Shown here in pieces: positions 24,509-31,905 of a stretch of DNA of 64,000 nt. Made by a program: the position numbers and the translations under genes. Location of the stretch: positions 9,533 to 73,532 of the forward strand of contig JAJYWL010000016.1 in assembly GCA_021791545.1 (NCBI GenBank). Direction: 5' to 3'. Source of the DNA: a bacterium (GTDB lineage: Bacteria; Patescibacteriota; Microgenomatia; Levybacterales; UBA12049). The notes under the pieces were generated by a model. It ran no database searches. It had not been told where the DNA came from and saw only the letters and a program-made list of their open reading frames with translations. Position 1 is the first letter of the stretch. Each line of letters opens with the position of its first letter.

Positions 24509-25696
24509 TCACATCAACCATTTTTTCTTAAGCTCTTTAAAGTTTCCTTCGAGAATGGATTTTCTTATGTCCTTAGTAAGATTGACAAGGAAATGAACGT
24601 TATGAAGACTTATCAAATTGTATGAAAGAAGTTCTTTTGCCCTGAATAGGTGGTGAATGTATCCTCTTGTAAAATTCTGACAGGTATAACAACTGCAATT
24701 AGGATCCAAAGGTTTCATATCTTTTACAAACTGAGGCTTATCAATGTCAGTTCTGAACCTATTCTTCATATTTCCCGATGGAGGGGATATAAAGAAAAAG
24801 CCTGTTCTTCCAATTCTTGTAGGAATAACACAATCGAAGGTATCCACTCCTCTTTCTACGCCTTCAAATAAATCATCTACTTCTCCAATTCCAAGCAGAT
24901 GTCTTGGTTTTTCCGAAGTTACAACATCTGTAGTCCAGTCAACAACTTCATAAAGATTTGTCTTTGAAAGATGAGCTCCTCCGAGAGCAATTGCGTCGAA
25001 ATTCTCGTCTACAAACCTTGCGGACTCTTCTCTTAAATCTCTGAATGGTCCTCCGTGAGTTACACCGTATAGGAGCTGGTCTTTCCTTTTATGAGCGTTT
25101 TTGCTTCTTATCTCCCATCTATTTGTCATCTCAAGACTCTTTTTAGTTTCTTCATAATCATACTTTGGAGATTCCAAATCGTCAAAAGAAACGATTAAAT
25201 CTGCCCCAATTTTCTCCTGTATATCTATTGAACTTTCAGGAGTAAGTTTATGAGTTGAACCGTCTAAATGTGACTGAAAAGTTACTCCCTCTTCGGTTAT
25301 CTTATTGAGTCTTGGTTTTGGATCATCTGTATTTCTTTCCTTTGGATCGTCCCTTAAAAACTTTACTCCTCCACCTTCTTTTCCTACTCCCAATGAGAAT
25401 ACCTGAAACCCACCTGAATCTGTCATGGTTGGTCCATTCCAAGACATAAACTTGGACAATCCTCCAAACTTTTTAATTAGATCTTCTCCGGGTCTTAAAT
25501 GAAGATGATAAGTATTGGCAAGAACAACCTCTGCCCCCATTTCCCTTAATTGTTTAGGGTCTACTGCTTTTACAGTTCCCTGTGTTCCTACAGGAACAAA
25601 AATGGGTGTTTCAATATCTCCGTTAGGAGTTGAAATAATACCTGCTCTTGCTTTTGTCTTTTTATCTTTTTGAAGTATTTTGTAGGAGGGTTTCAT
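24509..25696 (-). CDS. tgt: Queuine tRNA-ribosyltransferase
   Basis: LGIGEVDD...DTFDCVIPTR and the zinc site CSCYTCQNFTRGYIHHL. Confidence 0.85.
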   Translation of the reverse strand: MKPSYKILQKDKKTKARAGIISTPNGDIETPIFVPVGTQGTVKAVDPKQLREMGAEVVLANTYHLHLRPGEDLIKKFGGLSKFMSWNGPTMTDSGGFQVFSLGVGKEGGGVKFLRDDPKERNTDDPKPRLNKITEEGVTFQSHLDGSTHKLTPESSIDIQEKIGADLIVSFDDLESPKYDYEETKKSLEMTNRWEIRSKNAHKRKDQLLYGVTHGGPFRDLREESARFVDENFDAIALGGAHLSKTNLYEVVDWTTDVVTSEKPRHLLGIGEVDDLFEGVERGVDTFDCVIPTRIGRTGFFFISPPSGNMKNRFRTDIDKPQFVKDMKPLDPNCSCYTCQNFTRGYIHHLFRAKELLSYNLISLHNVHFLVNLTKDIRKSILEGNFKELKKKWLM

Positions 25697-27069
25697 TAGT
25701 TTTGAAGATTTTTTACCTGTTCTTTAAATTGATTTCCCCTGTCTTTATAGTTTTTGAACATATCAAATGACGCACAGGCTGGAGAAAGAAGAACTACATC
25801 ACCCGATACTGCTAGCTTTGAAGCGGCAAGCACTATTTGTTCCATGTTTTCTGCTCCCTCAATAGAGAGGAGTTTTACATTATGTTTTTCAATTTCCTCT
25901 TTTATCTTTTCCCACTCTATTCCTATTCCAATTATTGCTTTAATATTTTCTGCTTTTGAAATAATATCTCCAAGTTCCTCAAAGTCACTCCCTTTACTTG
26001 ATCCTCCCAGAATAATAATCTCGGGATTTTTGAAAGCTTTTATTGCGGCAATGGCAGTCTCGGGGGTTGTTGAGAATGAATCGTCATAATATCTGACACC
26101 ATTTACAGTTCCCACCAATTCAAGCCTATGTTCGAGTCCCTTAAATGTCTTTAATACTTCCTCTATATTCTCTATAGAGACTCCGGAAAGATAGGCCGCT
26201 AAACTTGCCGCACAGACATTTTCATAGTTATGTTCTCCCGGCAAAAGTATTTCTTTTGTATCTATTACCTTTTTCTCTCTTCCATCTACTCTTATCCAGA
26301 TAGCACCTTCCCTTACAAAAGAACCGTCTCCCATTACTTCCCTTTCTCTACTTGTATGTAAAACTTTACCGTCCGTATGAATGTCGGATTCGTTTGTTGC
26401 AGGATAGTCTCTATTTAAAATTGCAAAATCATCAGTAGTTTGAAATCTTAAAATGTTTCTCTTGGCATTAACATATTCTTCGGTTGTACCGTGATAGTTG
26501 AGATGCTCGCTTGTTACCATGAGCATTACTGCAATATGAGGACTTTTTGTAAGGTCCAAAAGCTGAAAACTGGAAAGTTCCAGAACAACTTTAGACTGAT
26601 CACTTAATTTATTCAAAAATTCAAAAGGAGGCACTCCTATATTCCCTCCTAAGTATGCATCAAACCCTTGTTTTTTAAGCATTTCCAAAATTAAAGTGGA
26701 AGTTGTTCCTTTTCCCTTTGTTCCGGTCACTCCTATAATTTCAGATGGACATAAATCAAAAAATATCTTTGTCTGAGATGTTATTTTCTCTGATTCTGTA
26801 AACTTTTGAAGAAGGTTTAATTGCACTCCCGGACTTCTAACGACAAGGTCAAAATATTTAAGATCATCAAGATAATCTTTGCCAAAAATAAACTTAATAG
26901 GTAGGTTTTCGACCTCTTTTATAAGCTCTATTTCTTTTTCTTCTCTTTCATCTAATACGGTAACATCCGCTCCCTTCTCCACCAAAAACTTTACAGAAGA
27001 AACACCTTCTATTCCAAGACCTACAACCGCTACTTTTTTGTTTTTGAAATCCATTGAGGAATTATCCAT
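25696..27069 (-). CDS. murD: UDP-N-acetylmuramoylalanine--D-glutamate ligase
   Basis: KKVAVVGLGIEGVS Rossmann N-terminus and the Mur ligase P-loop IGVTGTKGKGTTS. The start is set at MDNSSMDF (27069) because the ORF-track extension overlaps tRNA-Met. Confidence 0.8.
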   Translation of the reverse strand: MDNSSMDFKNKKVAVVGLGIEGVSSVKFLVEKGADVTVLDEREEKEIELIKEVENLPIKFIFGKDYLDDLKYFDLVVRSPGVQLNLLQKFTESEKITSQTKIFFDLCPSEIIGVTGTKGKGTTSTLILEMLKKQGFDAYLGGNIGVPPFEFLNKLSDQSKVVLELSSFQLLDLTKSPHIAVMLMVTSEHLNYHGTTEEYVNAKRNILRFQTTDDFAILNRDYPATNESDIHTDGKVLHTSREREVMGDGSFVREGAIWIRVDGREKKVIDTKEILLPGEHNYENVCAASLAAYLSGVSIENIEEVLKTFKGLEHRLELVGTVNGVRYYDDSFSTTPETAIAAIKAFKNPEIIILGGSSKGSDFEELGDIISKAENIKAIIGIGIEWEKIKEEIEKHNVKLLSIEGAENMEQIVLAASKLAVSGDVVLLSPACASFDMFKNYKDRGNQFKEQVKNLQN

Positions 27070-27079
27070 AAAAGAAAAG

Positions 27080-27153
27080 TACCAGGGGTGAGATTTGAAC
27101 TCACGACCGCAGGGATATGAATCCTGTGCTCTAACCAACTGAGCTACCCTGGC
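27080..27153 (-). tRNA. tRNA-Met(CAT). An elongator or Ile2-type identity cannot be decided.
   Basis: The reverse complement is GCCAGGGTAGCTCAGTTGGTTAGAGCACAGGATTCATATCCCTGCGGTCGTGAGTTCAAATCTCACCCCTGGTA. The anticodon loop is TTCATAT and the T-loop GTTCAAATC. Confidence 0.8.
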
Positions 27154-27337
27154 TTGTCCAACTATTTTAGCATCTGCTTCAATTTAATTCAATTTTGATG
27201 TATAATACTTAAACTCACGCGCGGGGTAGTGTACAGTGCACATGAGGCTCATAATCTCATAGGCTAGGCGCAACTCCTAGCCCCGCAACACATTTTTCAT
27301 TGACTTAGCCCCAATTGCCTTCTATAATTCCAACCCT

Positions 27338-28132
27338 ATGGCAGAACGAGAGCTTTCTTTTGTTCCTGATTTGAGTCAAGGACAAGGAAGAAATTACAAA
27401 GAAAGACCCACTCCCCATCCCAAAACCCTCAGGTTTTTAAATGACGCAAGAGTTAATGGAGTTTTTTATTCCCTACCCGAAGAAACAAGACACATAATAG
27501 ATGTGTACTACTATTCCGATTCTGGATTAAAAGACCTTCGAGGATTAGTTCACCCTAAAACAGGTGCCCAAGTCAAAAGTGTTATTTTCCAAGCTTTAAA
27601 AGATGTTTGGGAAAAATTGCCATCTGAAATTCGGGAAAGAAACCCCCTGGATGATGTATTGAAGCTAAAGCACCAATCTTACTCTCAAGAACACGCCGAA
27701 AGAATGAAGAATCCTTCCGAAGAAACACGAAAGAAAATATCGGAAAAAGCCTTAGAGAGAGGTTTTCCTCCAGGATTTGAGGAAAAAAGACTGAGAAAAA
27801 TTAGAGGAAAACATAGATCACTTAAAACCAAAAGAAGGATAGCCCGAACTCTAACAGAACTTTGGAGCGATCCAAGTTATAGGGAGGAAAGAAAGAAAAC
27901 CTTTCCAAAAAAAGCAAAAGAAAGGATATCAAGAGCCCTGGCAGATAGAGATATAGATAGAAAACTTTGGTCATTAGCACGAAACAATGATGAATTATCA
28001 GATTTTTTCACTGTGGAAGAAATTGATACTTTAAGAAACGTATTGGAACTTAAAAAAGAGACAAGAATGCCAAGTGCACATATTTCAGCTCTAATCGACA
28101 GACTATCTATTTTTGTAGCCAATAAATGTTAA
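27338..28132 (+). CDS. NUMOD3-repeat DNA-binding protein, homing-endonuclease-associated type. No recognisable nuclease domain.
   Basis: Three NUMOD3-like repeats: HAERMKNPSEETRKKISEKALERG, RGKHRSLKTKRRIARTLTELWSD and SYREERKKTFPKKAKERISRALAD. Confidence 0.55.
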   Translation: MAERELSFVPDLSQGQGRNYKERPTPHPKTLRFLNDARVNGVFYSLPEETRHIIDVYYYSDSGLKDLRGLVHPKTGAQVKSVIFQALKDVWEKLPSEIRERNPLDDVLKLKHQSYSQEHAERMKNPSEETRKKISEKALERGFPPGFEEKRLRKIRGKHRSLKTKRRIARTLTELWSDPSYREERKKTFPKKAKERISRALADRDIDRKLWSLARNNDELSDFFTVEEIDTLRNVLELKKETRMPSAHISALIDRLSIFVANKC

Positions 28133-28464
28133 AAGAATAAATTTAGCCATTGTTGCCAGTTGGGAATTTGTTTTTTAGGAGCTTCGCTACCCTTTTGTTC
28201 CTCTGTTTGTGGAATTAATATTTCTTGTTCTCCGGGTTTTATCAAAAAAAGCTTATTTCTGGCCTCTTCCTCCAGAAACTGCTGACTTTGCACATAAGAA
28301 AGTTCGGCTTTTAACTTCTGATTCTTAGTCTTTTCTCTATCTAATTGCTTCTGAGCATTGGTCAAAACATCCTGTTTTTGATAAATATCGATGATTGAAT
28401 GAGCCAAATTATTTATTATAAAAAGCAAAATCAAAACGACGATAAAATAAGGAATTTTCTTCAT
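28129..28464 (-). CDS. Septum formation initiator family protein (FtsB/DivIC-like)
   Basis: N-terminal transmembrane segment, a coiled coil and the C-terminal motif ARNKLFLIKPGEQEILIP. Confidence 0.65.
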   Translation of the reverse strand: MKKIPYFIVVLILLFIINNLAHSIIDIYQKQDVLTNAQKQLDREKTKNQKLKAELSYVQSQQFLEEEARNKLFLIKPGEQEILIPQTEEQKGSEAPKKQIPNWQQWLNLFF

Positions 28465-28530
28465 AATTTAATCTTATCACCTATTTGCTGACCTTGACTA
28501 CTTTCTCTCTAAGTGATATTATAGGCCACT

Positions 28531-29391
28531 ATGAAACCCATTAAACTTCACGATGCTCACGAGGAGTTCAAAAACTATTTGAAACAGAATAATAGGTCTA
28601 CTTCAACAGTCATTGCCTACGGCAAAGACATTGAACAATTGGTAGGCTTTCTTCAGGAACTCGAAAGAAATCACGTACATGAAGTAACAAAAGAAGATAT
28701 AGAAGCATTCCTGGCCAGAATGAGTAAGGAAGGATACACTCCAAAGTCGATTTCAAGAAAAATTAACTCAACAAGAACTTTTTACAGATTCCTAAAAATA
28801 AACGAATATATTACGGATGACCCTTCTCTACTGGTCTCTCACCCTAAATATCAGTTAGCACCACCCAGAATACTTACTCCTACGGAATATAGAGCCTTAA
28901 GAGATGCTGCTCACAACGATCCGAGAATGTATGCAATCATAGAGCTACTTCTACAAACAGGAATAAGAATAGGAGAACTCGCAGCACTTAAGCTTTCAGA
29001 CGTACAAAAAGACAATTTACACATAGCTCCATTTGAAAAACACGAAGAAAGAACGGTTCCTCTTAACAAAAGAGCAAAAGAAGCACTTGATAGATATATG
29101 GAAGTAAGACCAAAAGTATCAGACGACCATCTTTTCGTAACAAAATCTGGAAAACCTTTCCTTATAAGAAACATTAGAACGGCAATTGAAAGATACTTTA
29201 GACTTGCTGAAATAAAAGACGCAAAAGTAAATGACCTAAGACACACATTTGTAGCACACCATTTAAGACACGGCGTTTCATTGGTTCTTCTTTCCAAAGT
29301 ACTCGGGCATAAAAGACTTTCTACAACGGAAAGATATCTTCAGTTTGTCTCTGATAGAGGCAAGGAATCAACTTCTTTAACGGAGCTTTAA
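28531..29391 (+). CDS. Tyrosine site-specific recombinase (XerC/XerD-like)
   Basis: Xer-length protein of 286 aa with an N-terminal SAM-like domain. Catalytic motifs TGIRIGEL, LRHTFVAHHLRHG and GHKRLSTTERYLQ supply the R..HxxR..Y residues. Confidence 0.8.
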   Translation: MKPIKLHDAHEEFKNYLKQNNRSTSTVIAYGKDIEQLVGFLQELERNHVHEVTKEDIEAFLARMSKEGYTPKSISRKINSTRTFYRFLKINEYITDDPSLLVSHPKYQLAPPRILTPTEYRALRDAAHNDPRMYAIIELLLQTGIRIGELAALKLSDVQKDNLHIAPFEKHEERTVPLNKRAKEALDRYMEVRPKVSDDHLFVTKSGKPFLIRNIRTAIERYFRLAEIKDAKVNDLRHTFVAHHLRHGVSLVLLSKVLGHKRLSTTERYLQFVSDRGKESTSLTEL

Positions 29392-29402
29392 GCTACAAAA
29401 TG

Positions 29403-29474
29403 TGCGTCCACTTGGGTTCGAACCAAGGACATCTACTTTATAAGAGTAGCGCTCTACCACTGAGCTATGGACGC
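29403..29474 (-). tRNA. tRNA-Ile(TAT)
   Basis: The reverse complement is GCGTCCATAGCTCAGTGGTAGAGCGCTACTCTTATAAAGTAGATGTCCTTGGTTCGAACCCAAGTGGACGCA. The anticodon stem is CTACT/AGTAG with loop CTTATAA, giving anticodon UAU. Confidence 0.75.
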
Positions 29475-29514
29475 GTAAAAAGTATTATAGCAGTAAATTA
29501 GTATTCTTCAAGAA

Positions 29515-31905
29515 TTAAAGTCTTGCTCTTGTGGCTATCTCACCTTCCAAAGACCTTACTTCTTTTCCGTACTTTAGTCTTGAAAGTTCTTTAACGAGCT
29601 CTGCGACTCGAGGATTCATTAGTGCTTTTTCCTTTGTCATATCTTTAGTAGTGTCCATTGAAAAAGGCGTCATAGGCTCATTTCCTACGATAGTCTTCAC
29701 GTAAGCGTTAAATACGTCTATATTTATTAGATCAGCCTCGGAGAACGTAGGCTGGAACTCATGTTGGAGATAATTTGCATCGGTTACACCAACTCTAAAT
29801 GAAGCCAAAGTTCCTACGTTTCCAAATATGGCGTTTTTTACCTCTTCATCCATCTGTCCTATAAACTGATTCGCGACGATAAGATTGAGTCTATATTTTC
29901 TTGCCTCGGAAAGTATCTGGGCAAAATCCGGAGTTGCAAAGTTTTGGAACTCGTCTACATAAAGATAAAAGTCTTTTCTTTGATCTTGGGGCATGTCTTG
30001 TCTACTCATAGCAGCAACCAAAAGCTTAGGAACTAAAACCAAACCCAAGAAGCTTGCATTCTCCTCCCCTATCTTTCCCTTAGAAAGATTTACGAGAAGA
30101 ATTTTTTGTTCATCCATTACTTTTCTGAAATCAAATGCAGAATGAGATTGCCCAATGATATTTCTCATCATCTTGTTGGTGACGAACCTTCCAAACTTTG
30201 AAACTATATAATCGAGTGTTTCCGACTTATGGAAGTCTGATGTCTGAGCTATCTGATCTGTCCAGTATCTTCTAACGATAGGGTCCTGAACCTTAGGCAA
30301 AAGCTCTTGGACAAAAGAAGCATCTGTTAAAGCCCTTACTACTTCTATGAACGTGCTTCCGGGCTCAGACATTACTGTTAACATTGCGTTTCTTATTGCG
30401 TGTTCAAACCTTGGACCTATGATACCTGTCTTATTAGGATCATAAAGTTTGTACATGAGTCCAACGATTGAAGAAACTATGTAATGTTTTTCTTCTTCGG
30501 TTTGAGCCTCAATCATGTTAAGACCCATTGGTCTTTCGGTATCCGAAGGGTCAAAAAGTATTACATCTTCTGCCCTTTGAGGAGGAATTAACTGAAGTAT
30601 ATCTTCGATCAAATCTCCATGAGGATCGATTACTCCTATTCCCTTCCCGTTATTTATATCCTGGATGATCATCTGTTTCAAAAGTTCTGATTTTCCTACA
30701 CCTGTTTTTCCAATTATGTACATATGTCTTCTTCTATCATCGTCTGCCATATATACAGGTCTTTCCAAGCCCCTATATACGCTTTTACCCAGGTATAGAC
30801 CTTCGCTAGGGATTTGAGCCGGAGCGGGAGCTCTTTTTGAAGTGAGCCAGAAAATATGAGGAGTTGAAACACTTTTATTTGGGAAATGGAAAATCGTAGC
30901 TAATTCTTCACTTGTTAAAACTGAACCTACTCCTCTCATGGGAAGATAGCGATAAACAAAGTCTGTAATAAAACCTCCCTTAAATCTCATGCTCTCTTTT
31001 GTTAATTGATTAGCACCTGAAAATTGCGAGAAACTTGAAACGATATTCTCAAGATGAGCTTCGGCAGCTTCTTTTGTACTTGAAGATACAACGATTCTAA
31101 TGAAGGTGTTAAAGCCGGGCTTCCCTATTTTTCCCTCAACCGCCTCAAGTTCTTTGGCATCTACCGAATATTTGGCTGTTTCCGGATTTGCCTCACTTTT
31201 TTTAGTATTTGAAATAAACTTTCTTCCCTTTTTACTCCAGGAAGAATTAGCACCCGAAATCAATATTTGTATTGCCGCTCCCTCCCCCGGACTCATCTTT
31301 GCAAGAACGGATGTTATTGAAGACATTGGATCTACTGCAAAATCCTTATAGACCTTGATAGGTTTGAAATTTGAATCTTTCAACTTAAGAGAGGCAAAAG
31401 CTACTCTTCCCGTATCGGAAAAGATGTTATATTCATTTCCCAAGATATAACCTTCTTTTGAATCTTTTTCGTCTACGACTCTTATCTCCGCGTCCGGATA
31501 AGCTCCGTTTATCTGTTTTTCTACAAAATCCCTATATTTGTTCGGGGTATTTACATAAAAACGGATATCTCCCGGCATACCTACAATTTCAAAAGAAAGG
31601 TGTGGAGGAAGTTTTAAGAAAGAAAACATTCCGCTTCCTCCTTTTATAGAAGCAAAGCTTGCAAAAAGCTGTTCTGCGGTATCTATTTTTACCTCATTAT
31701 CCCTCGGAACACTTATCTGTAAAAGGGTGGAATCCAATGACTGTCTTTCCCTATCCCTGTTTCTATACCAAATAGAAAATACATAACCAAGGCCAATAAA
31801 GATTACTGCCAAGAAAGCCACGACAAGAGTGACAACAATAATTGCAAAAAACAATGCGTTCAATGCTGCCAACGGATCTACCATAAATGACGATGATGTA
31901 TTCAT
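29515..31905 (-). CDS. Membrane-anchored P-loop ATPase of the VirD4/TraG/TraD coupling-protein (HerA-FtsK) class, with a novel roughly 380-aa N-terminal domain
   Basis: N-terminal transmembrane helix, Walker A YIIGKTGVGKSELL, and a Walker B/TraM-recognition-like segment FYLYVDEFQNFATPDFAQILSEARKYRLNLIVANQFIGQM. The region before the ATPase has no recognisable motif. Confidence 0.6.
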   Translation of the reverse strand: MNTSSSFMVDPLAALNALFFAIIVVTLVVAFLAVIFIGLGYVFSIWYRNRDRERQSLDSTLLQISVPRDNEVKIDTAEQLFASFASIKGGSGMFSFLKLPPHLSFEIVGMPGDIRFYVNTPNKYRDFVEKQINGAYPDAEIRVVDEKDSKEGYILGNEYNIFSDTGRVAFASLKLKDSNFKPIKVYKDFAVDPMSSITSVLAKMSPGEGAAIQILISGANSSWSKKGRKFISNTKKSEANPETAKYSVDAKELEAVEGKIGKPGFNTFIRIVVSSSTKEAAEAHLENIVSSFSQFSGANQLTKESMRFKGGFITDFVYRYLPMRGVGSVLTSEELATIFHFPNKSVSTPHIFWLTSKRAPAPAQIPSEGLYLGKSVYRGLERPVYMADDDRRRHMYIIGKTGVGKSELLKQMIIQDINNGKGIGVIDPHGDLIEDILQLIPPQRAEDVILFDPSDTERPMGLNMIEAQTEEEKHYIVSSIVGLMYKLYDPNKTGIIGPRFEHAIRNAMLTVMSEPGSTFIEVVRALTDASFVQELLPKVQDPIVRRYWTDQIAQTSDFHKSETLDYIVSKFGRFVTNKMMRNIIGQSHSAFDFRKVMDEQKILLVNLSKGKIGEENASFLGLVLVPKLLVAAMSRQDMPQDQRKDFYLYVDEFQNFATPDFAQILSEARKYRLNLIVANQFIGQMDEEVKNAIFGNVGTLASFRVGVTDANYLQHEFQPTFSEADLINIDVFNAYVKTIVGNEPMTPFSMDTTKDMTKEKALMNPRVAELVKELSRLKYGKEVRSLEGEIATRARL

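Follow-up and report, generated by a model that had tools for sequence, protein, structure and literature searches.

Evidence for a compact initiator-type tRNA gene, rather than a leader RNA, upstream of a NUMOD3-module protein gene in a Microgenomates bacterium

INTRODUCTION

Does a GC-rich, foldable interval in front of a gene for a putative DNA-binding protein serve as the regulatory leader of that gene, or does it hold a gene of its own? The question is raised by a 64,000-nt stretch of Microgenomates DNA (contig JAJYWL010000016.1, positions 9,533 to 73,532; the window, meaning the whole stretch), in which the 184 nt from 27154 to 27337 separate a tRNA-Met(CAU) gene on the minus strand from an open reading frame (ORF) of 264 amino acids on the plus strand (ORF264, 27338-28132). 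A preliminary description had taken this gap for a structured leader, the ORF for either a homing-endonuclease-like gene or a domesticated DNA-binding protein, and the whole for a tRNA-flanked 2.3-kb islet with a recombinase. On the analyses reported here, we consider it likely that the locus holds two independent genes, a compact tRNA-fMet gene and an ORF264 that stands in a cassette slot with a promoter of its own, and not a leader with its ORF. Throughout, L plus a number denotes a locus and P plus a number a relative of the protein.

RESULTS

The interval is indeed richer in GC than its surroundings, as had been stated: 100-nt windows gave 0.46 to 0.48 over 27200-27349 against 0.27 to 0.45, mostly 0.30 to 0.42, in the flanks, and the features described there lie at the positions given for them, including a TATAAT at 27201-27206. 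On the plus strand ARAGORN called a tRNA-Met(CAT) at 27220-27289, in a place that coincides exactly with the complementary segments that had attracted attention, and Rfam RF00005 matched a 101-nt slice over its full length (model positions 1 to 71) at 37.3 bits, above the gathering threshold of 29. The nested segments are real: gcgcgggg...ccccgc pairs as the acceptor stem and ctaggcgcaactcctag as the T arm of a cloverleaf, which is also the minimum-free-energy fold of a 73-nt segment (-24.5 kcal/mol, z = -2.0). The entire 184-nt gap folds no better than shuffled sequences (z = -0.28), and no Rfam cis-regulatory family matched within 27156-27337. An Rfam search of the 2.8 kb from 26900 to 29700 at E <= 1 missed the compact tRNA, presumably through its speed filters.

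The gene covers 69 nt (27220-27288, plus strand; 57% GC) and reads, from its 5' end, acceptor strand CGCGGGG, UA, D arm GUGU-ACAGU-GCAC, A, anticodon arm UGAGG-CUCAUAA-UCUCA, variable region UAGG, T arm CUAGG-CGCAACU-CCUAG, acceptor strand CCCCGCA and a final A; CCA is not encoded. The anticodon read from the sequence is CAU. The acceptor stem has a C1xA72 mismatch followed by G2-C71 and C3-G70, with A73 behind it. A73 is also present in E. coli tRNA-fMet, and we take the whole acceptor, CGCGGGG/CCCCGCA with C1xA72 and A73, to be identical to that of the E. coli molecule. The D arm has a 4-bp stem and a 5-nt loop, ACAGU, with A18 in place of G18, and the T loop CGCAACU has C54 and G55 in place of T54 and Psi55 (pseudouridine), so that instead of the canonical elbow set G18, G19, T54, Psi55 and C56 the window copy carries A18, G19, C54, G55 and C56. 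The variable region is 4 nt long, 26:44 is a Watson-Crick pair, and the anticodon stem contains A29-U41, G30-C40 and G31.U39 (au/GC/gu). The 1:72 mismatch, G2-C71 and C3-G70 are the determinants of Fmt, and an au/GC/gu anticodon stem is a rare natural exception that keeps the essential G30, described for some mycoplasmas and alpha-proteobacteria only (PMC5389676).

In order to see how widely this shape occurs, we scanned GTDB, one genome per species, with a pattern that fixes the initiator acceptor stem and CUCAUAA and admits only arm lengths shorter than canonical. It matched at least 119 loci, nearly all of them in Microgenomates-type Patescibacteria (Levy-, Gottesman-, Woese- and Roizmanbacteria), and 79 distinct sequences were used as the family for covariation; the window copy scores 91.8 bits with the family model. 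In this family 97.6% of cells are paired and 10 pairs have changed on both sides, values that none of 500 shuffles reached, and controls with slid stems were only 26 to 53% paired. Because the search pattern fixed the acceptor stem, that stem is uninformative here. The 26:44 pair co-varies as a Watson-Crick pair. G19 and C56 are invariant, and positions 18 and 55 change together without exception: all 37 sequences with A18 have G55, and all 41 with G18 have U55 or C55 (Fisher 8e-22). No other unpaired column pair reaches their mutual information of 1.0 bit. These observations therefore indicate that the contact between the D and T loops has been kept but re-coded.

About 40 metagenome-assembled genomes (MAGs) labelled Gammaproteobacteria or Pseudomonadales also carry the compact tRNA-fMet (L009-L014, L021, L023-L025 and about 30 further loci). 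In those that were checked the gene order is that of the window and the flanking proteins are 60 to 80% identical to it (at L009, Xer 79%, TraG-like 75%, MurD 62%), which makes these labels look mistaken. Among the named relatives of the source organism, Levybacteria MAGs are the nearest. As a separate observation, three independent Logan assemblies (L002:1, L003:1, L006:1) end inside the tRNA within 2 nt of each other, at window positions 27262-27264, likely because the 5' half of the tRNA is identical in many co-occurring Microgenomates and causes branching of the assembly graph.

Could this cloverleaf be something other than the working initiator, that is, a tRNA pseudogene, a relic of an attachment site, or an elongator or Ile2-type CAU tRNA? 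Its Rfam score of 37 bits is far below the 66 to 74 bits of the neighboring tRNAs, it lacks G18, T54, Psi55 and two of the three initiator G-C pairs, and other genomes do have genuine relics of the tRNA 3' end close by. A relic, however, would hardly keep four stems by compensatory changes in 79 sequences together with a perfect 18:55 co-variation, promoter-like elements are common upstream, and C1xA72, G2-C71, C3-G70 and A73 are initiator features (PMC5389676). The elongator and isoleucine roles also appear to be filled, because a canonical elongator-type tRNA-Met adjoins the compact gene and a tRNA-Ile(UAU) serves AUA. We therefore regard this alternative as very unlikely. All 89 other CAT tRNAs that ARAGORN found beside the compact tRNA at related loci have G1 and canonical D and T loops, so the compaction is specific to the initiator, and no other C1xA72 CAT tRNA was found by ARAGORN within about 0.9 Mb of related loci. 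With tRNA-Ile(UAU) covering AUA, the compact gene is the only candidate initiator seen and would be the sole one. In two Levybacteria-type loci (L017:1658-1730 and L037:5577-5649) we also noticed a second CAT tRNA, a non-canonical Met tRNA with an odd D arm (GGCAGGA AG UGGAC UGGUG UCCC...).

Several points count against an initiator of this kind. Instead of the three consecutive initiator G-C pairs (29:41, 30:40 and 31:39) only one is present, the au/GC/gu arrangement being kept in 78 of the 79 family members; pair 11:24 is U-A, as in elongators; the invariance of the acceptor stem was imposed by the search pattern and is not independent evidence; and the absence of a canonical initiator elsewhere is drawn from the 0.9 Mb of related loci. 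On balance, the features read from the sequence make 27220-27288 a gene in its own right, for an initiator tRNA of unusual compactness from a bacterium of the Microgenomates, a group of the candidate phyla radiation (CPR), and suggest that it would act as initiator in vivo.

Each of the two genes has its own promoter. The TATAAT at 27201-27206 (plus strand) ends 13 nt before tRNA position 1 and is accompanied by a weak -35, TTCAAT, at 27178-27183 (plus strand). Among the 118 fetched loci with 60 nt of upstream DNA, 103 have a -10-like hexamer within those 60 nt. In 65 of these it ends 9 to 15 nt before the tRNA, frequently with TTGAC as the -35. By this pattern, the TATAAT at 27201 belongs to the promoter of the tRNA itself. 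A terminator-like hairpin with a T-run follows the compact tRNA at many loci. ORF264 is preceded by a sigma-70-type promoter, TTGACT-17 nt-TATAAT (27300-27328, plus strand; 11 of 12 consensus matches), which lies between the tRNA and the ATG. Since its -10 ends 9 nt before the ATG and no Shine-Dalgarno sequence precedes that ATG, the ORF264 mRNA is probably leaderless. In L006, whose protein is 90% identical, both hexamers are kept and the 17-nt spacer has three substitutions, and the homologue P0012 shows the identical geometry, TTGACT-17-TATAAT-9-ATG, directly after a repeat that is described below.

These promoters bear on whether the structure is a cis-regulatory leader, such as a riboswitch or attenuator in the 5' untranslated region controlling the NUMOD3 protein. 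The structure does stand only 49 nt upstream of ORF264 on the same strand behind a TATAAT, and no terminator-like site was found between the two, which would allow some read-through. Such a leader should nevertheless be transcribed with its ORF and inherited with it, and here the ORF has a near-consensus promoter of its own on the 3' side of the structure. Furthermore, the structure fits the model of tRNA and none of the cis-regulatory families; at least 119 genomes have the same RNA, beside unrelated genes; and where the DNA in front of an orthologue was readable (L005, L126 and L127), no tRNA-fMet directly precedes the gene. The gap as a whole, as noted, does not fold beyond chance. A regulatory RNA belonging to ORF264 is thus extremely improbable, and we assign the structure to no cis-regulatory or riboswitch class.

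ORF264 has been called as a gene on 7 public contigs, and a search of 5.8 billion clustered proteins yielded no more than six relatives. With a profile, 205 proteins were retrieved from 1.84 billion representatives at E <= 0.001; their matches are modular, covering an N-terminal domain (residues about 27 to 115), a repeat region (about 115 to 195) and a C-terminal domain (about 195 to 257); the last is conserved across the family and also occurs alone in proteins of 86 to 124 amino acids. Neither NCBIfam nor a profile search of PDB sequences gave a significant match for ORF264, and PHROG 314, "homing endonuclease", matched residues 114-223 (E = 1.2e-4).

The preliminary description had proposed three NUMOD3 modules. 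For ORF264 itself the Pfam search yielded nothing significant, NUMOD3 included (E = 0.95, 9.9 bits against a cutoff of 20.4); the closest orthologues reach E = 0.016 to 0.042, and 21 of 47 family members match NUMOD3, at best with 6.8e-37. By BLASTP, residues 123-196 align in several registers (E = 3e-6 to 1e-4) with the repeat array of P0052, which has a strong NUMOD3 match (Pfam 4.5e-20). The alignment with P0052 and the matches among the relatives therefore support two modules, at residues 124-156 and 158-190 (27707-27907, plus strand). The third candidate, FPKKAKERISRAL at about residues 191-205, is doubtful: the lineage-specific stretch to which it belongs is missing in P0004 and P0005 and, for the most part, in P0006.

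A first AlphaFold2 (AF2) model built from 5 sequences had a pLDDT (predicted local distance difference test) of 61.6, and Foldseek gave only weak sigma-4 hints on that model, whereas an alignment of 47 sequences produced an almost wholly helical model at pLDDT 90.9. The latter model shows a helix-turn-helix of the sigma-70 region 4/LuxR type at residues about 27-107 (27416-27658, plus strand), the two NUMOD3-like modules, and a helical C-terminal domain at residues about 196-263 (27923-28126, plus strand). There is no nuclease fold in it, and neither Pfam nor the model reveals a nuclease motif in the N-terminal 110 residues, in agreement with the preliminary description. In P0032 and P0111 the family domains are fused to full sigma factors, which together with the sigma-4-type N-terminal domain points to a role in DNA binding or transcription; ORF264 lacks region 2 and so is not a sigma factor. 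Lacking a catalytic domain, the product is, as far as the modeled fold and the domain fusions can tell, most likely a site-specific DNA-binding or regulatory protein and not a homing endonuclease. The idea of a domesticated DNA-binding protein thus came close, NUMOD3-type modules being present without a nuclease, and the companion idea of a degenerate homing endonuclease is not favored. Against this assignment stand the matches of Pfam NUMOD3 and Sigma70_r4 to ORF264 itself, which are below threshold, and the Foldseek matches, which are not significant (E > 0.8).

Is the gene still functional? Between ORF264 and L006 the ratio of nonsynonymous to synonymous substitution rates (dN/dS) is 0.15, with 0.02 to 0.03 for the neighboring genes, and dN is 0.059 against 0.003 to 0.007, roughly 10 times higher. 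Orthologues with as little as 37% identity still have an intact frame, and all lie in the same place. The sequence comparison thus indicates a functional, fast-evolving gene under purifying selection. One may still ask whether it is a free-standing homing endonuclease gene that has shed its nuclease domain and, now without function, is decaying, as the NUMOD3-type modules, the PHROG 314 match, the fast evolution and the stand-alone GIY-YIG genes in the same slot of other genomes might suggest; P0052, a relative that matches in the repeat region only, carries a DUF559/Vsr-type endonuclease domain. A remnant would not be expected to remain under purifying selection with an intact frame at one shared position and a conserved promoter, all three domains are modeled at high confidence, and the sigma-4-type domain with its sigma-factor fusions suggests another role. 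We judge decay to be improbable. The distribution is patchy, ORF264 being found at none of the 119 related species loci listed, yet within the subclade that has it the gene is conserved vertically beside divIC.

The 3' end of ORF264 meets divIC/ftsB (28129-28464, minus strand; Pfam DivIC 1e-12), which is convergent with it and forms the distal edge of the variable slot. The two genes overlap by 4 nt at their stop codons, as they also do in L005, L006, L126, L127 and the contig of P0005 but not in P0006. Beside divIC lies a tyrosine recombinase of the Xer family (28531-29391, plus strand; Pfam Phage_integrase 2.7e-30), and with a tRNA-Ile(UAU) (29402-29474, minus strand) the block comes to its conserved end. 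In every orthologous contig that is long enough, the ORF is followed by DivIC, the Xer-type recombinase, tRNA-Ile(UAU) and a DUF8128/TraG-like ATPase. Among the 119 GTDB species loci listed, the compact tRNA is accompanied by DivIC in 73 and by Xer in 82 (at 45 to 85% identity), and tRNA-Ile(UAU) and the DUF8128/TraG-like gene likewise recur. DivIC and Xer are conserved core genes and the recombinase-bearing 2.3-kb islet dissolves, only the sub-slot of the ORF being variable.

This sub-slot, from the tRNA 3' end to the divIC stop, ranges from 9 nt (L061) to more than 6 kb among related genomes, and its contents are unrelated from genome to genome: stand-alone GIY-YIG, RadC, a SAM-hydroxide adenosyltransferase-like gene, several genes without a Pfam match, and others. 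Stand-alone GIY-YIG genes of 81 to 112 amino acids recur just after the tRNA-fMet (L014, L016, L030, L040, L044, L063, L084, L086, L119 and L156); the two that were scanned matched Pfam GIY-YIG (L016, 5.5e-19; L063, 6.6e-17), and the remaining ones were recognized by their N-terminal motif. The slot gene of L087 (234 amino acids, 102 to 806 nt past the tRNA-fMet 3' end) has an N-terminal helix-turn-helix (HTH_23/HTH_38/HTH_7, E about 1e-4) and, by eye, a LAGLIDADG-like motif, LIAGIALYWAEGTK, and may be of the homing-endonuclease type. We rejected the reading of L005 as a pair of tandem paralogues, since its upstream 241-aa gene is unrelated and shares an N-terminal YDA(I/L)LVHGYWM motif with slot genes that lack annotation in L017, L066 and L084.

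Extra copies of the tRNA 3' end (CCCCGCAAC) are distributed unevenly around the tRNA: on its own strand 13 lie downstream and none upstream, and the opposite strand has 3, counted over equal spans of 0.42 Mb each, for which we estimate a chance expectation of about 1.6 per class. Most copies belong to a conserved element of about 34 nt, AAATAGGTTCTnATTTCTTGnAnnCCCCGCAACA, which keeps the TAGG-N16-CCCCGCAAC spacing of the tRNA and not its T arm. We aligned 39 distinct copies in all, about 30 further loci having come from a scan of metagenomes. Of the 120 pattern matches in metagenomes, about 90 were due to chance or to a conserved motif that recurs, GGGAAATAGGTG...CTGCCCCCGCAACGGTAA, which we take to be cobalamin-riboswitch cores. 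A search for related loci in JGI metagenomes (query A2) gave no confirmed relatives.

The element bounds units at L014, L063, L099, L105, L111, L121, L128/L129, L140, L156, L199, L207, L213, L234 and L235. Measured from tRNA to copy or from copy to copy, these units span 0.48 to 3.3 kb, mostly 0.7 to 1.2 kb, and hold one or two genes, among them 2-hydroxyacid dehydrogenase, GNAT, GIY-YIG, EEP, radical SAM, phosphorylase, a YafQ-like toxin with its partner, Fic-MerR and GrpB; tblastn and Pfam found no recombinase in the sample of units examined. Six loci have units in tandem (L099, L111, L140, L199, L207 and L235). At L199, L209 and L235, 8 to 12 nt separate the last copy from the divIC stop, a position occupied by the end of the tRNA where the slot is empty. 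Such a pattern is what insertion at the tRNA 3' end leaves behind, with the newer units beside the tRNA and the older ones displaced towards divIC. At L025, L099 and L111 we also observed duplications of the last 14 to 17 nt of the local tRNA (the 3' strand of T loop and T stem plus the acceptor strand) that flank inserts of 65 to 105 nt and may be scars of excised elements.

How does ORF264 fit into this pattern? Its homologue P0012 is one such unit, of 873 nt between ATTTCTTCCAATCCCCGCAACA and GTAGCTCCAATCCCCGCAAT. Some findings speak against a cassette history for the window copy and against a dedicated system behind it. The window contains no second copy of the tRNA 3' end, nor was a relic of one found at the ORF264/divIC junction; a cassette origin for ORF264 is thus argued from its position and from one homologue. 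The closer orthologues L005, L126 and L127 adjoin divIC without an adjacent tRNA. The element of about 34 nt shows no hairpin propensity (mean z = +0.39), its best consensus dyad is only 5/7, and no recombinase is linked to it. On our reading, ORF264 would be an old cassette that has become fixed.

The neighboring recombinase scores 166 to 173 bits with XerD/XerC/XerA-like NCBIfam models, below their equivalog cutoffs, and is thus a generic Xer; with integron-integrase models it reaches 63 and 34.5 bits against cutoffs of 265 and 435. Attribution to integrons was dropped because of these scores and because there are no attC-like hairpins. A Xer-family recombinase is present, as in the Xer-dependent modules (integrative mobile elements exploiting Xer [IMEX] and dif modules), but their 28- to 31-nt sites with two inverted arms were not found. 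Without hairpin or dyad and with a generic Xer, the system is therefore classed neither as an integron nor as dif modules.

A different explanation would see in the repeat-bounded segments decayed tRNA-targeting islands that once had their own integrases, and not cassettes moved in trans by the neighboring Xer. Integration at a tRNA 3' end with duplication is the classical signature of integrase-bearing islands, the site has neither hairpin nor dyad symmetry, the recombinase scores as a generic Xer, and many loci have the tRNA and xer several kb apart or inverted. Islands would not readily account for the small size of the units examined (mostly 0.5 to 1.2 kb, at most 3.3 kb, with one or two genes and no tyrosine recombinase), for their tandem arrangement, or for an element-side repeat arm that is conserved across many genomes. 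We give this explanation a weight not far short of even. Our own full proposal is tentative and we hold it with distinctly less than even confidence: the 3' end of the Microgenomates tRNA-fMet, one gene away from Xer, would be the landing site of recombinase-less, self-promoted cassettes of one or two genes that end in AAATAGGTTCTnATTTCTTGnAnnCCCCGCAACA and pile up towards divIC, with ORF264 as an old, fixed cassette, and, separately, the compact tRNA with A18.G55 would be the only initiator of the clade.

In the remaining annotation of the region, the elongator-type tRNA-Met(CAU) lies at 27080-27153 (minus strand; ARAGORN; Rfam tRNA 66 bits), is canonical, with G1 and normal D and T loops, and is divergent in orientation to the compact tRNA; in the Rfam alignment its first pair is a G1.U72 wobble, and its anticodon stem has an A31xC39 mismatch at the base. 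The TTG start listed for MurD (window 25696-27138, minus strand) would make it overlap this tRNA-Met, and the public gene call (452 amino acids) starts at the ATG at 27054. The UAU anticodon of the tRNA-Ile at 29402-29474 suggests that AUA is read without lysidine (TilS), and the strand opposite this tRNA gave a spurious, sub-threshold Rfam match to Plastid-ycf2 (46 bits against 65.7).

DISCUSSION

According to the scheme that we favor, the tRNA-fMet would be transcribed from the -10 at 27201 and then processed, CCA-tailed, charged and formylated, for which the Fmt determinants C1xA72, G2-C71 and C3-G70 and also A73 would all be in place. Its compact elbow, with a D loop of 5 to 6 nt, would be held by G19-C56 and by an 18:55 contact that switches between G18.U/C55 and A18.G55. 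ORF264 would be transcribed from its own promoter, probably as a leaderless mRNA, and its product may bind DNA through the sigma-region-4-type helix-turn-helix, the two NUMOD3-type modules and the helical C-terminal domain. The slot between the tRNA-fMet 3' end and divIC-xer would receive small cassettes bounded by the tRNA 3'-end copies of about 34 nt, of which ORF264 in the window may be an old, fixed one.

The compact initiator tRNA, conserved across Microgenomates, is a variant of the otherwise known tRNA-fMet. Like the bacterial molecules encoded by E. coli metZWV and metY, it has CAU in an anticodon loop of 7 nt (CUCAUAA) and is encoded by an independent gene that has a promoter to itself. 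Unlike them, it is 69 nt long with a 5-nt D loop, A18 and a T loop CGCAACU that is not of the T-Psi-C type, together with a 4-nt variable region, Watson-Crick 26:44, U-A at 11:24, the au/GC/gu stem and no encoded CCA. Animal mitochondrial tRNAs have shortened D loops, non-canonical T loops and a reduced D/T-loop interaction. The compact tRNA shares the short D loop and the non-canonical T loop with them and differs in keeping four full arms, in an elbow that is re-coded and not lost, and in that only the initiator is affected. Full-text literature searches, whose coverage is incomplete, returned no description of the shape of the initiator tRNA in CPR/Patescibacteria, and we claim no priority.

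In the tails of I-TevI-type GIY-YIG and HNH enzymes a NUMOD3 helix is combined with a helix-turn-helix. ORF264 resembles them in its tandem NUMOD3-type modules, its helix-turn-helix, its small size and its patchy occurrence, and departs from them in that it has no catalytic domain, its helix-turn-helix is N-terminal and of the sigma-region-4 type, a further C-terminal domain is present, and the gene is under purifying selection and syntenic in its subclade. In contrast to proteins with typical sigma-70 region 4 or LuxR-GerE domains, it has no region 2 and a sequence below the Pfam thresholds.

With integrons, IMEX and the dif modules of Acinetobacter (PMC6449649, PMC7399989), the array has in common tandem units of one or two genes ending in a short conserved site, the absence of a recombinase from the units examined with a conserved tyrosine recombinase adjoining, and cassette-typical cargo (a toxin-antitoxin pair, GNAT, Fic, GIY-YIG, GrpB). 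The attachment site here is different, namely the 3' end of the initiator tRNA, with neither an attC-like hairpin nor dif-like inverted arms, the recombinase is no integron integrase (63 bits against 265), and the mobility of the units is putative. By this analogy, such a cassette array may be functionally like an integron or the Xer-dependent modules, but built on a tRNA gene. The same literature searches, again with incomplete coverage, returned no description of cassette arrays at tRNA-fMet.

The initiator tRNA is among the most conserved bacterial RNAs, and the version in use throughout one CPR class appears to be shortened: A18.G55 replaces G18.Psi55, many members have no T54, and of the three "universal" G-C pairs in the anticodon stem a single one is left. 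If this is true, elbow formation, modification of the TruB/TrmA type and the checking of the initiator by IF3 and the 30S subunit would become testable in a natural system. It is also a warning that filtered covariance-model scans can miss a compact tRNA gene. ORF264 exemplifies the use of NUMOD3 modules outside nucleases, joined to a sigma-4-type helix-turn-helix. Finally, the platform defined by the element of about 34 nt may be undescribed, and its tRNA-fMet cassettes, if they are mobile, would provide a means of gene capture in tiny genomes that are thought to be poor in such machinery.

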